Shown here: positions 3,301 to 59,081 of the stretch, piece after piece
How positions within the stretch are numbered: position 1 is the stretch's first letter
Layout of the letters: each line of letters starts with the position of its first letter
Assembly (NCBI RefSeq): GCF_964213995.1
Contig: NC_135815.1
Coordinates: forward strand, 50,158,001-50,222,000
Direction of reading: 5' to 3'
DNA: 64,000 bases
Source of the DNA: Mustelus asterias
Taxonomy: Eukaryota
Position numbers and translations under genes: made by a program
The notes under the pieces: model-generated
What the model was told of the DNA's origin: nothing
Database searches by the model: none
Seen by the model: the letters and a program-made list of their open reading frames with translations, nothing else

Positions 3301-6300
3301 TTGTTGCACTCCAACTCTGGAGCCACAGATTGTCAACATGACTGAGTCAAGTTCACAGCAAATGCTTCTGATTGGGTTGTACCCGGAGCTAATTCAAAGG
3401 GCAGTCTCTGTTTTGTATCAGTCTGCACTTGTAGAAATTATGTAATTTTGTTTGCACACACAATCTGCTTTTCTCCTCAACGGGAGCACTCCATCGGCAT
3501 TTAAATGCAGCAGGGTGACACTGCAATAATAGTGAATATGCTTAGAAAGATGATCCTATGGTACCTTGCAGTTGCAATGATATTGGGGAATACTACTTAA
3601 TCAGACATCATTTGTTAAATAAAATAACTGAATATCACATGTGCACATGTGGTGTGTGTGTGTATCTGTGGACAAAATATAACTCATATGACTCTATAGA
3701 GGCGGGTACAATTATATCTTTTAAAAAGCATTTAGATAGTTACATGGGTACAATGGGTATAGAGGGACATGGGCCAAATGCGGGCAATTGGGATTAGTTT
3801 AGGGGTTTTTAAAAAAAAAGCGGCATGGACAAGTTGGGCCGAAGGGCCTGTTTCCATGCTGTAAACCTCTATGACTCTATGCAGGCCCTGTTGAGATGTA
3901 GATAGCTGAGTGAGGATACTTTATTGCACTAAAACTGTGAGGCATGTTACAGTCATGAGGGATTAAACAGGGAAAATGTGAAGGAACCTTTTCTTTATAT
4001 ATGTTTTGCAGTGGGGAGGGGGACGGAAGACAAACATGCAATAAGTCCATTACATTATCAGCCTCGTGTTTTACTGCTGAAGTGAGGTGCTGAGGTTGAA
4101 AGGAGTGTGCCTATTGCTGTTACTGCAGACATTTAGCAACCCAGTCTGCACAGGCTGATTCCAGGATGTCTGCACACTCAAAACAGGCAGGCCAATTAGT
4201 AACTCTAGCTAGAAACCATGCCTACAACACATTATTTAAGAATGAAAAAGGAAATTGAAACGGAGTTGTGGTATGTTTGCAAATAGGAGAGTGCTAATTT
4301 GGAAGGACATTTCCTATTGTGGGTGATGAGGAAAATGGGAATGCACTTTTGCAAAAACAAGGCAAACGTTCTCACCTGCGAGGCAAGCCCCAGGTTTTTC
4401 CAGAGCTTCCCCCCCTAATTGGAACTGGGATCCTGGATCAGCAGCATTTCAGAAGAGGGGAGATGGGAGAGCTGCACTATAACAGTGCAGAAAGCAGTAG
4501 ATCACAGTGATAGGAGCACACTGCCAGCATTATGTGATGGAAGATTGCAGTTTTACTACAACCTCTTATTTTCAGTGGTGGTGGGATATGGATTGGTGCT
4601 TGATGCCGAATGTGAGTTTGGAAATGTACTGTGCTCCGGGCTCCCCGCTGTGCCTGTGTTTTTTGGTAACGAATACTGCAAGTCTGTCCGAGCCAGCGGC
4701 ACAGAGTGAATGCAGAGAGAGAGAGAGAGATACATTAGGGTGACTTTCCCTTGTGAGGATTCACTTATCCTCTGCTCTACAATTCATTGCTAGCAATACT
4801 TTTCGCCAATTGTGGTGCTGTGAAAACTGGTCTGTTTTATATTTCAAGATAGTTTTGACAGAAACTGGCCCATTTACCACCTTTTTTTAAATAGAGGTTT
4901 GCAAGTGACAGCAAGTGATGAACCAGCACTTTAAGTAGCTTGTAATTTCCTCAGAATTCTTGAATTCAAGAGTGACACCAGTGCTGATTTTTAAACAAGA
5001 AAATTTGAATGTAATACACTGAGGCATTGCTGTGGTTGAATTTCCTCAGCTGGGATCGGAATCTGCCCCCCAGCCACAGCACATTTGCACGCCTCTCGCG
5101 GCACACACACCAGTTGAAAACCACTGACTTAACCTAGTGCATTTAAACACTCGTTCATATATTTCATATGAGCATGTCCTTGTGCAATATCTCATAGGAT
5201 ATACATCATTCATTTTTGAACCAAAGAGCTGTGAGAGACCTGATATTTTGTTGCAGTCACTGACATCAGATTATGAATTGTAATAGTAATCATCATTTAC
5301 AGTACACAACTTGAGAATCCATACCTCTGATTCCACTTCAAGAATTTCATCTCCAGCAGATGGAAGTTCCTTCCAACCAACTATCTCCACTGGGGTACTT
5401 GGTCCAGCAGCTTTCATTGGCTTATTATTCTCATCAAACATTAACCGTACCTTAGCCCAGCTCTTCCCTGCCACCAGGACACAACCTTTAGTTAATGTTC
5501 CATATTGGATAATAGCTGTGGTGACTGGTCTATTAAGAAAAATTGTATTTATTTAACAAACTTCCAGAAATAGATAGAAAAGAAAAACGTTTATTTATAT
5601 AGAACTTTTCATGACCTCACGTCATCCCAAAACACTTCACAGACAATCAAGTATTATTGAAGTATAGTCATTTTGTAATGCAGGAAAGGTTGCAGCCAAT
5701 TTATCCCAAAGCTAGGTCCTACAGATAGCAATACAATAGTGACTACATAATTTGTTTTTTGTTACGTTAGTTGAGGAATAAATATTGACTTGGAGAGCAG
5801 AGAAGAACCCTCTGTCTTCTCTGAAATTGTGCCATGGAATCTTTTATGTCTACCTTTTAATACAGTAAGAAGTTTAACAACACCAAGTTAAAGTCCAACA
5901 GGTTTATTTGGTAGCAAAAGCCACACAAGCTTTCGAGGCTCTGAGCCCCTTCTTCAGGTGAGCTTTGACTCACCTGAAGAAGGGGCTCAGAGCCTCGAAA
6001 GCTTGTGTGGCTTTTGCTACCAAATAAACCTGTTGGACTTTAACCTGGTGTTGTTAAACTTCTTACTGTGTTTACCCCAGTCCAACGCCGGCATCTCCAC
6101 ATCATGACTACCTGATAATAGACAGGGCCCCCCTTTAATGTCTTATCTTAAAGGTGGCACTTCCAATAATGTAGCACTCCCTCGATACTGCTCTGAAGTG
6201 TTAGCCTAGATTTGTTTGCTTGTCACTGGCGTGGGACTTGAAGTTACAACCTTCTGACTCAGAGGCGACAATGCAACCACTAAGTCATGGCTGACAATAT

Positions 6301-9300
6301 ATTGGTGGTTATCTTTTCAAAGGTGATTAAATCAAAAAGATTCACAAATCCTTCAGTGCGTTATTTTGTGTCCGATGAGCCCGGTGCTCATCGGTTTTCC
6401 CTCACTATGTACGATAATGTGACTGCCGCAGGCATTGAGATGTTGCTGTTTTTTAAGATTGCTGCTTAACGTGCACAGAGGTTTACAAAGTGAGAGAACC
6501 TCAAGGCTGCACTGATGCCTAGGACAGAACAGAAATGGATAAATCAAGAGATGGTTCATCTTTGAGACTTATCCATTGCCATGTCCTCACGGTCTGCATT
6601 GAAAATTATATGCCTTCAGCCTGTGTTTCCGAAGTATTTTATGCCAGCTTCTTTTGTCCACCGAATAATATTGATCATTTAAAGCTCAAAACACCTGTTT
6701 TGGAAACTTACACTTTGTCATTCAAAAGATCACTTTGACAGCACTTTGTACTGCCTTTTCACAGGATTTCCAGGTGAATGATCTTGACTTGTCACAAGAT
6801 GCACAAAATTGCTTGTAGATGATGTGTCAAATCATTCAGTGGTGTCTGTTTTACATCCATGCCTTACAGCTCTTCAAAAATTTGAAAGTACTAATGAATT
6901 ATATAAACCTTTGGCTTGGTTTTCAAGAACATTTAAATACAACTCACCCCCAGTGGCACTAGATGATCTTTTTCACATGGCAAATCCAGGAAATTTCCAA
7001 AGGCAAAAAGTAAACCTCTAACTGGTATTCATCCATCTAAGCTCTTCAACATAGTTTATCTAGTCTATGGTGATCTGCTAGCCATGTTTTATATTGCCAA
7101 TTTCTCCCCCATTCCTTTCCTGAAGGTGTTGAGCCCTTGCTGTTACATTTCCATAGTATCAGTTGTGCCTCAGTACACAACTCAAATATCCATTATCCGT
7201 CATCTCTGAGCCTTCAGAGTGATGGCACACTGGTTGACAAGGAGGGGTTGACACATCTCAACCAAGTAAATTCCTAGTCTCATTTGACATCTATATATAA
7301 ACATTCAACAAAGGCCTGGATTATAATGAAGAGCAGGACTCTGCCTGATTTACCCTTCCCTATACCACAGGAAAAGTGGTTTAGTGAGGTCAGTTTTTCA
7401 GGATTATCAGGACAATTTTTCAGGACAATCCTGTGGAAAGTACACTACTATTCCAATTTATGCAAAACACGTTTGACTCCAATCCTTGATAATGCTGCAA
7501 GGCACCCCACTGTAGCAATGTTCATTCATTTCCACAACGCAGCAACTGTTCAATCTAACGTCTAACTTGCAAAGATTAATGGGGGAAAACGTTTTCTAGT
7601 TAAATTTACCAGGCACAGTCTTACCAGCCGTGCAGAGATAGCTTTGGTGGTAGGTGGGGGGGTGAGTCAATGTTACACTGGTTCAGCAATGGTACATTGG
7701 TTCCCACCTGGAAACAGGTGAACAACAGAAGCAGCTACACAGCCGGCAGAGTTGGGTGCCTATTAACTGACCACAGGGCCAGATTGGAGCTGCAGCCCGG
7801 AGCTTACTATGCAGCATGTAAAGTCTGGCAGATCCCTGAAGGGTGCCTCTTGGCAGCAGGCAGGGCCTTGCAAAGCCTGCCGCTTCTCCCACAGAGGGTC
7901 CCTCTCCATTGTGATGGCTTGGCAGCTGTAGCCACAAATAATTTAATAATTTTCAGACATTTCCAGAGGATGCCTCCACCTTGAAGTGCCTCCTTTGTTC
8001 CCCTGTCTGTTGCAGCAGCGCCCATCTCACCTGGTGGGGCTGTGATCAAAACCGCACTGCTGGGCCTCCCATTCACCCAGTCTGGTGCATGCTCTCTGCC
8101 TGCCACCCTTAATTAGATGATGCTCATGGAGACAACCTCCTAATCGGCCACATCTGGTAACATCATGCAGGCAGCCAATCAGGCATCACTAGTAAGGTCA
8201 GGACTCAGAAAACCTTCAAAAGGTAAGATTCCACCCAGCATTCCTCATAGCCTTTCCTAATCCGGGTGAATGAGAGAGAAGATTTTGGCCATTAACAGAA
8301 GTAAAATTAATTTTCAAAACCTAAGCATATAAATAATGAAATGCCCAACAATTAGAGGAGTTTTTTTTTAAAGGTTGTCCCACCTACAGCTTAGAAGGCA
8401 ATCTTTTCCAAGCTTTCATCATTTTAAAACAATTTTCTGAAAGGTGAGAAAACACAGCTCAAGGTAATTCTTCCTCCAGCCTCTGTGCTGTTGTTTAGGG
8501 AAACATTTGGCCTCCATTCAGCACCACCTCATGAGGTTGGGCACCTTAAAAACAGGAGGCTTTTGGAAATGAACTTCCATCCCATCACAATATGCTGTCT
8601 GGATTAGGTTTAAATTATTTTAGTAACTTAATGGTGAAACAGTGGTTTGCTTGATCTGATCATTCATTGCAAAAATACAGTAAGTAAATGCATTGCTATA
8701 CAATGTATTTAAGAAAACAACTTAAAGACATATCAATCTTGGATGTAATGCTGAAAAATCAAAGACTCCATCTTTTCTTTGCTAATTTGTTACAAAACAT
8801 TGGTTCTACAATTTGGCCAATTTTATTAGTTTTTTAGGAAGTACATTTCCAATATATAAAGACAGGAAAAGTAACATCATTAACTTACTCACCCTTTTCC
8901 TTTATCATTCCGACATTCAATAATAATACCCTCAACAAGTCCAGTGCAATCTGCTTTCAATTCCAACACTTCCGATAGAGCAACAGTGGCCTCAGCTAAA
9001 GCCATCAAATTGTCTCCCTAAAAAAGTTACATTACATTACATCATATAGGCACAGTTTCAAAGCAAATACAATTCCAGAAGTCCAAAATGCTTCCACTTT
9101 ATCTTTCAAAGAAATATAGGCAGTATTTTATTGCTTTAAGCATATGAACTAATTCTGCCAGAATTGGAAAATACGTATTCTTATCTTTATGAGAATGGGT
9201 TTTTTCATAGCAATGGATGATGAATTGTTTGAGTAATTGGCAAATGGATCTACATTAAACCCATAGAATCCTACAATGCAAGAGGAGGCCATTCAAAGAA

Positions 9301-58868: not shown

Positions 58869-58968
58869 ACAGTAAGAAGTCTCACAACACCAGGTTAAAG
58901 ACTTTAACCTGGTGTTGTGAGACTTCTTACTGTGCTTACCCCAGTCCAACGCCGGCATCTCCACATCA
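58869..58968 (+). mobile_element. Minimal Penelope-like palindrome (32-bp perfect arms, 1-nt spacer, tail)
   Basis: 13-bp TSD taacatgcaatga (58857-58869, 58969-58981). Confidence 0.88.
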
Positions 58969-59081
58969 TAACATGCAATGAGACAGGATTAAATAATGAC
59001 CTTGTAGTGAAGGCAGCCCGGGTAGCAGTGATCATGATTGAATTTCACATTCAGTTTGAGGGAAACTAGTGTTTTAAACTT

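Follow-up and report, generated by a model that had tools for sequence, protein, structure and literature searches.

Inverted, truncated pseudo-long terminal repeats (pLTRs) with a tail on one side and a target-site duplication (TSD) have been described in rotifer Penelopes (PMC3846280), and the combination of inverted truncated pLTR, tail and TSD is listed among the general features of Penelope-like elements (PLEs; PMC8557442, PMC8969392). The standing proposal for the inverted pLTRs is self-priming (PMC3846280). For the Anolis element PAc it has been shown in vitro that the protein, predicted to be a dimer, cleaves both target strands, extends each of them and begins reverse transcription from two sites, which form the borders of the tail; the integration steps after priming were termed unvalidated in the same paper (PMC11167929). 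The main text of that paper holds no model of the inverted arm under the terms inverted, twin, palindrom and template switch, and its supplementary figures S1-S2 may bear on it. Here we analysed 64,000 nucleotides of the shark Mustelus asterias (contig NC_135815.1, positions 50,158,001 to 50,222,000; the window in what follows). Five insertions in the window, c1 to c5 (Table 1), are dead, heavily 5'-truncated insertions of one abundant shark PLE with an endonuclease (EN+), and the junctions of four of them suggest how the inverted arm may have formed.

Table 1. Coordinates of the insertions, their internal features and the host genes within the window
Feature	Position	Strand	Remarks
c1, palindromic insertion	5862..6103	.	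arms 101 bp, within MTIF2 intron
c2, palindromic insertion	25315..26036	.	arms 293 bp, first coding intron of MTIF2
c3, palindromic insertion	41295..41967	.	arms 290 bp
c4, single tailless arm	56670..56751	-	about 80 bp, internal 21-bp tandem duplication
c5, perfect palindrome	58869..58968	.	arms 32 bp
RT + GIY-YIG ORF, last codons (c2)	25609..25703	+	stop at 25701-25703; 5-nt duplication near 5' end
RT + GIY-YIG ORF, last 19 codons + stop (c3)	41620..41680	+	spacer translation
Minimal type I hammerhead motif (c3)	41877..41912	+	core intact (CUGAAGA, stem II, GAAA, GCUU); mirror copy 41424 (-)
MTIF2 host gene	196..31200	-	11 coding exons inside window, from 31200 down to 196
tRNA_edit/PrdX-type host gene	47972..54924	+	two coding exons, apparently intact

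A preliminary description of this DNA, made by a model from its letters, had proposed five insertions with a common terminus, and the terminus motif indeed occurs nine times in the window, twice in each of four palindromes and once more at 56671, as against 0 in 100 shuffles. Its arm lengths of ~100, 293, 290 and 32 bp became 101, 293, 290 and 32 bp on arm-by-arm alignment. The arms of c1 (5862-5962 / 5969-6069) have one mismatch and a 6-nt centre at 5963-5968, those of c2 (25316-25608 / 25708-26000) four mismatches, three of them at CpG sites, and a 99-nt spacer, those of c3 (41333-41622 / 41679-41968) one mismatch and a 56-nt spacer, and those of c5 (58869-58900 / 58902-58933) no mismatch and a 1-nt centre, so that identity between the arms of a palindrome is 98.6-100%. 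The same tail, of 35-38 nt, stands on one arm only in 4/4 palindromes, again as first described: on the right in c1 (6070 to about 6103-6110), c2 (26001-26036) and c5 (58934-58968) and on the left in c3 (41295-41332); c4 has none. Tail and spacer lie on one and the same arm in c2, and in c3 the spacer belongs to the right, tailless arm. The 35-nt cores of the tails differ at 0-4 positions between palindromes. The proposed size series mixes subfamilies and does not consist of derivatives of one copy, since the arms within c2 and within c3 are identical at 289-290 of 290-293 positions and those of c2 and c3 agree at ~227/263 aligned positions. No sixth copy was found in the window by blastn with four window-derived queries (E<=0.05).

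Several further observations concern the tail. That of c2 differs from the other tails at 3-4/35 positions, with 4/293 differences between the c2 arms, and either a decayed source copy mobilised in trans or homogenised arms would give this pattern. The family consensus beyond the tail, a weak one (agreement 0.36-0.38) built from loose ends before 41295, reads as ATG-initiated sequence, which may put the end of the tail at about the ORF start codon. At its right junction (6100-6112) c1 agrees with this continuation at positions where the left TSD copy differs, and primer-template microhomology is the suggested cause. We also considered whether a stem-loop is conserved in the tail, but this was not established, with z = -3.1 in c2, -0.75 in c1 and -1.0 in c5, and with a double change in 1/20 pairs among three aligned ends.

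The identity of the element comes from the spacers of c2 and c3, the two longest insertions, which keep the last codons of an open reading frame (ORF) for reverse transcriptase (RT) and GIY-YIG endonuclease (EN), GIY-YIG having been named already in the preliminary description. The c3 spacer translates as FRTHEDGLNRDIGFMSHYL followed by the stop. The c2 spacer frame matches the extreme C-terminus of RT + GIY-YIG ORFs in 9/19 candidates at 66-88% identity; the named matches are all shark proteins, and RVT_1 is found in P0006 and GIY-YIG in P0003. The ORF content of the window amounts to 19-30 terminal codons, and its assignment to RT + GIY-YIG is by homology only. Pfam gave nothing on the two short spacer peptides, and tblastn with 10 related proteins found no internal ORF piece in the window, its hits being the two spacer remnants and two weak chance matches. 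The relatives of the spacer ORF reach about 880 aa. Two cysteines between GIY and YIG (CCHH motif) are present in 84/88 relatives of >=600 aa and in P0003, P0005, P0006 and P0008, and a CX2-5CxxC linker between RT and EN is present in 86/88 long relatives and in P0005, P0006 and P0008; both motifs were read in relatives, the ORF remnants of the window being C-terminal ends. This linker is a mark of Neptune and Nematis and absent from Penelope and Poseidon (PMC8557442), and it points to a Neptune/Nematis type rather than Penelope/Poseidon, as an assignment by motif. Neptune is favoured over Nematis because a 2026 preprint names Neptune and Poseidon for the PLEs of the vertebrates that it sampled. 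Membership of the Penelope/Poseidon clade was also considered, and the linker in the closest relatives is at odds with it. With protein homology and an anatomy like that of published PLE insertions, the EN+ Penelope-like identity, already claimed from the letters, is close to certain. Exact search with a 31-nt arm stretch gave 0 matches in viral, prokaryote-genome and metagenome collections.

In addition to the ORF remnants, the arms carry candidate hammerhead ribozymes. A motif scan for the minimal hammerhead found four sites in the 64 kb, all within the arms of c1, at 5974 (+) and 5957 (-), and of c3; both arms of c2 have a G-to-A change in the core. Rfam returned 0 families at gathering score, its curated threshold, and the complete ribozyme structure did not appear in minimum free energy folds. 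The hammerheads of PLEs have been reported to be minimal forms without helix III (PMC6155905). Within a whole hairpin each candidate ribozyme would pair with its mirror copy and would hence probably be silent.

This anatomy is the published one in miniature, and it is no surprise to a PLE specialist. The shark element is like Neptune and Nematis EN+ PLEs (Craig et al. 2021, PMC8557442) in its RT and C-terminal GIY-YIG with CCHH and CX2-5CxxC linker (here in relatives), its 5' truncation, its truncated copy in inverse orientation, its one-ended tail of 30-40 bp and its pLTR hammerhead, but its insertions, five in 64 kb, have shrunk to palindromes of pLTR only (100-720 bp), their targets are not microsatellites and their TSDs are clear. 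Pen2/Pen2a of Adineta vaga (Arkhipova et al. 2013, PMC3846280) likewise have inverted pLTRs placed head-to-head, with a 31-bp tail on one of them and TSDs of 8-10 bp; they are of low copy number, and the self-priming on an antisense template proposed for them fits c3 and c5 poorly. In the Anolis Poseidon element PAc (Frangieh et al. 2024, PMC11167929) the tail is likewise set by two adjacent RT starts, both target strands are nicked and extended and a hammerhead lies near the pLTR-ORF junction; PAc belongs to a different clade, however, and its starts lie 111-118 nt inside the ORF, whereas the shark tail would end at about the ORF start codon according to the weak consensus. Our literature search, which had Repbase, Dfam and subscription journals outside its scope, found no description of this shark family or of a twin-priming model for PLEs.

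The three clear TSDs of 11-13 bp given in the preliminary description are exact: 11 bp in c2 (25304-25314 / 26037-26047), 12 bp in c3 (41283-41294 / 41968-41979) and 13 bp in c5 (58857-58869 / 58969-58981), with an equal score in only 0-1/1500 random position pairs. A fourth, absent from that list, is the probable degenerate TSD of 17 bp at c1, where 5846-5862 and 6104-6120 match at 14/17 positions (scan score 8, reached by 7/1500 random pairs). No significant TSD was found at c4, where 374/1500 random pairs score as well. The target of c5 lies inside a host repeat, and a paralog of that repeat at 27664-27727 has the target sequence once only; no target-site consensus is evident across the four sites. 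We also compared c3, from its left flank through the left arm to the spacer, with Logan contigs of four runs (X1, X7, X3 and X9). In organism A (X1) a contig passes from the c3 left flank into the tail, and in organisms B and C the match of the contigs with the left flank ends at 41294, where the left TSD copy also ends, and is followed by ~1 kb unlike the window sequence; the B and C runs are nonetheless full of the Penelope-like element. To judge from these contigs, c3 is apparently absent in two related organisms, with breaks at the TSD as expected of empty orthologous sites.

The junctions of c3 and c5 bear most closely on how the arms were made. The tail of c3 belongs exclusively to its left arm and the ORF spacer exclusively to its right, each arm having sequence that the other lacks, and therefore neither is a plain copy of the other; the term fold-back, under which these insertions were first described, probably names the wrong mechanism, since simple self-copying could not have produced c3. 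Upstream of 41620 the family contigs run on, in organism A among others, as an ORF ending ...GATAGCCAA (loose ends: 148 in X1, 88 in X7 and 90 in X3), and there is therefore a 3-nt overlap at the c3 centre, a GTT microhomology at 41620-41622. The centre of c5 is one unpaired base, and a 1-nt loop is too small for an intramolecular hairpin. Because of the asymmetry of the c3 arms and the 1-nt centre of c5 we favour, from four insertions and with a probability of about 0.6, an origin in two separately target-primed cDNAs that were joined head-to-head. The arms of one insertion have common variants that other insertions lack, and in 2/4 palindromes the arm lengths lie within 7 nt of each other (p about 0.01-0.02 in three models that assume independent truncation); because of these common variants and matched lengths, the two cDNAs need coupling.

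We suggest that the RT-GIY-YIG protein, probably a dimer, would nick both target strands 11-17 bp apart and that from each nicked 3' end a separate cDNA would be primed on the RNA of the element; a start at the outer site would give an arm plus tail and a start at the inner site, about 35 nt upstream, a tailless arm. Both cDNAs would terminate early, their 3' ends would be joined head-to-head through 0-3 nt of microhomology or short filler, and fill-in would leave the order TSD, inverted arm, spacer, arm, TSD. The spacer would be the excess length of the longer cDNA and could fall on the tailed arm, as in c2, or on the tailless arm, as in c3. A single source template would most likely have served for both cDNAs, and this would give one tail, common private variants and matched lengths. 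Anatomy, homology, junction sequences and apparent empty sites are observed, and the pairing of the two starts, the single template and the head-to-head joining are our interpretation. LINE-1 twin priming is alike in that both target ends prime cDNA and inverted segments are joined by microhomology; its inverted segments are adjacent parts of one RNA, however, whereas the shark arms copy the same sequence and so form a palindrome. Nicking and extension of both strands and two start sites bounding the tail have their in vitro precedent in PAc, the Poseidon relative (PMC11167929). The stricter form of the scheme, in which a dimer starts one cDNA per tail boundary on a single template, one per target strand, we put forward tentatively, as somewhat less probable than its negation.

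Contigs of the same four runs give an idea of the abundance of the family and of its joints. The element is very abundant in all four, with a summed contig depth of 15-26 million over the element and 23.6 over the flank in X1, which is not a copy number, and the floor of ~36,000 termini (each base counted 31 times) is good to an order of magnitude only. Tail/body depth ratios of 0.58, 0.64, 0.72 and 1.03 were inconsistent across runs and were left unused. Fusions of two 3' ends in opposite orientation, tail end to tailless end, recur in three organisms: 25, 1, 13 and 3 contigs in X1, X7, X3 and X9 join 41295 to 41331 and 9, 0, 2 and 2 join 41295 to 41328, the counts in X1 and X9 being lower bounds. 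Palindromic units in tandem, insertion at an end already present or re-priming from a finished strand may account for them. Among the 15 joints listed, with 57 more beyond the listing, there was no tail-tail or tailless-tailless fusion, but this carries no information, since de Bruijn contigs break at joints that are perfect palindromes. Direct re-starts from 41366 and 41372 back to 41295, with 3 letters added, were also seen, as in partial tandems. One X1 contig skips 164 arm bases (41343-41508) at a depth of 536, about 23x the flank depth, and is possibly an internally deleted, amplified subfamily. Furthermore, the shark gene models P0005, P0010, P0018 and P0052 are fused to pieces of the element (PYRIN-domain in Mustelus, a PPP1R12A-like isoform in Chiloscyllium, DIPK2Ab and epn2 isoforms in Heptranchias), by either exonisation or annotation error.

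Several points weigh against the joining of two cDNAs. Only four palindromes are at hand, one tail in 4/4 of them has p 1/16 under random pairing, c4 is a single arm with no clear TSD, and the empty c3 sites of B and C are inferred from the break point at the TSD. A full-length master was not recovered in the same species, and the master is of Neptune type, the biochemistry being that of a Poseidon element in which, moreover, start sites did not differ between strands in vitro (PMC11167929). The tail-to-tailless fusions (25 + 9 contigs in X1) are not predicted by the simple model, and the matched lengths and common variants are equally well predicted by fold-back or by later gene conversion. 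Fold-back, in which one cDNA or antisense template copies itself and EN resolves the hairpin by a staggered cut, after which the tail may remain on the one or the other side, has been proposed for rotifer Penelopes (PMC3846280), with the tail attributed to EN-mediated resolution (PMC8557442). It accounts naturally for near-identical arms and matched lengths and possibly for the 3'-3' fusions, explains the coupling equally well if resolution is staggered, is as compatible as two cDNAs with c2, where spacer and tail share an arm, and reaches c3 with one extra cut. That cut, however, must remove the tail from the template strand, a step hard to reconcile with target priming, the centre of c5 would leave only a 1-nt loop, and the two in vitro RT start sites define the tail already, without a resolution step (PMC11167929); we regard this explanation as unlikely, at something like one chance in four. 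In c2 and c3, the two longest insertions, the short arm ends <=5 nt from the ORF stop codon, and because of this run-off at a fixed RNA end, or the two pLTRs of one tandem transcript, would be another way to obtain the short arm.

A secondary origin, with the short perfect palindromes c1 and c5 left over from longer inverted insertions whose centres were lost by cruciform processing and with the arms homogenised by gene conversion, would suit the single-copy tail of c2, which differs at 3-4/35 positions when its arms differ at only 4/293, and the 6 nt of unassigned origin at the c1 centre. It appears improbable to us: a decayed source copy accounts for c2 equally well, arm mismatches persist, three of the four in c2 at CpG sites, ordinary 5' truncation should give short TSD-flanked arms, and the initial formation of the inversion is left unexplained. 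An assembly or library chimera could be suspected, as no listed contig spans a whole palindrome and X1 is perhaps the assembly's source sample, but the TSDs, CpG-type arm mismatches and asymmetric tails, the X1 contig over the left c3 junction, the breaks at the TSD in two other organisms and published PLEs with identical anatomy make such an artefact very improbable. Equally remote is a miniature inverted-repeat transposable element or another DNA transposon with long terminal inverted repeats, suggested by inverted repeats with flanking TSDs; TSD length varies here, the tail is one-sided, the ends vary by several bases, and a PLE ORF remnant and a hammerhead motif are present. That candidate is refuted by the RT and GIY-YIG homology, and neither fixed termini nor a TSD of fixed length was found.

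With regard to the host locus, c1 and c2 lie in introns of MTIF2, one exon of which is a 99% match to MTIF2 of Mustelus asterias. The site of c3 is between the tRNA_edit gene, which begins near 47972, and the start codon of MTIF2, and c4 and c5 lie 1.7 and 3.9 kb past the stop codon of the tRNA_edit gene. The tRNA_edit/PrdX-type gene stands head-to-head with MTIF2, and we take it to be PRORSD1-like; its human ortholog is a pseudogene. A Ty3/Gypsy-like LTR retrotransposon lies in pieces at about 35500-39300 (-), with integrase, RT and RNase H matches, and is broken by a short interspersed repeat near 37640-37960. Two short repeats at 31636-31832 and 37764-37960 form an inverted pair, 95% complementary and 5.9 kb apart, and many other inverted repeat pairs could be further sources of double-stranded RNA (dsRNA).

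The claim that this family routinely inserts as hairpins rests on 4/5 local insertions. From general knowledge of palindromes, cruciform extrusion is presumably plausible only for c1 and c5, with their 6- and 1-nt centres. Over 40,000 editing sites have been reported for a lizard Penelope and strong hyper-editing for the elephant shark (PMC5625713), and by analogy with this lizard Penelope long dsRNA from c1 and c2, which lie in MTIF2 introns, is plausible. That near-perfect hairpins of 100-300 bp have persisted within a housekeeping gene, in its introns, is of interest for how sharks tolerate palindromes and for their ADAR load. What the junctions add is a hint on the origin of the inverted pLTRs and single tails of PLEs. 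Insertions as short, abundant and TSD-bounded as these let the mechanism be tested in public shark assemblies, where the side of the tail and of the spacer, microhomology at the centre and the correlation of arm lengths can be scored. If coupled twin priming is true, every insertion would have one tail and no more, its arms would match in length and the spacer could lie on either of them. Shark genomes would then probably contain tens of thousands of miniature palindromes, a data set to settle the integration mechanism of PLEs, and the edited dsRNA of sharks might come from them in large part.

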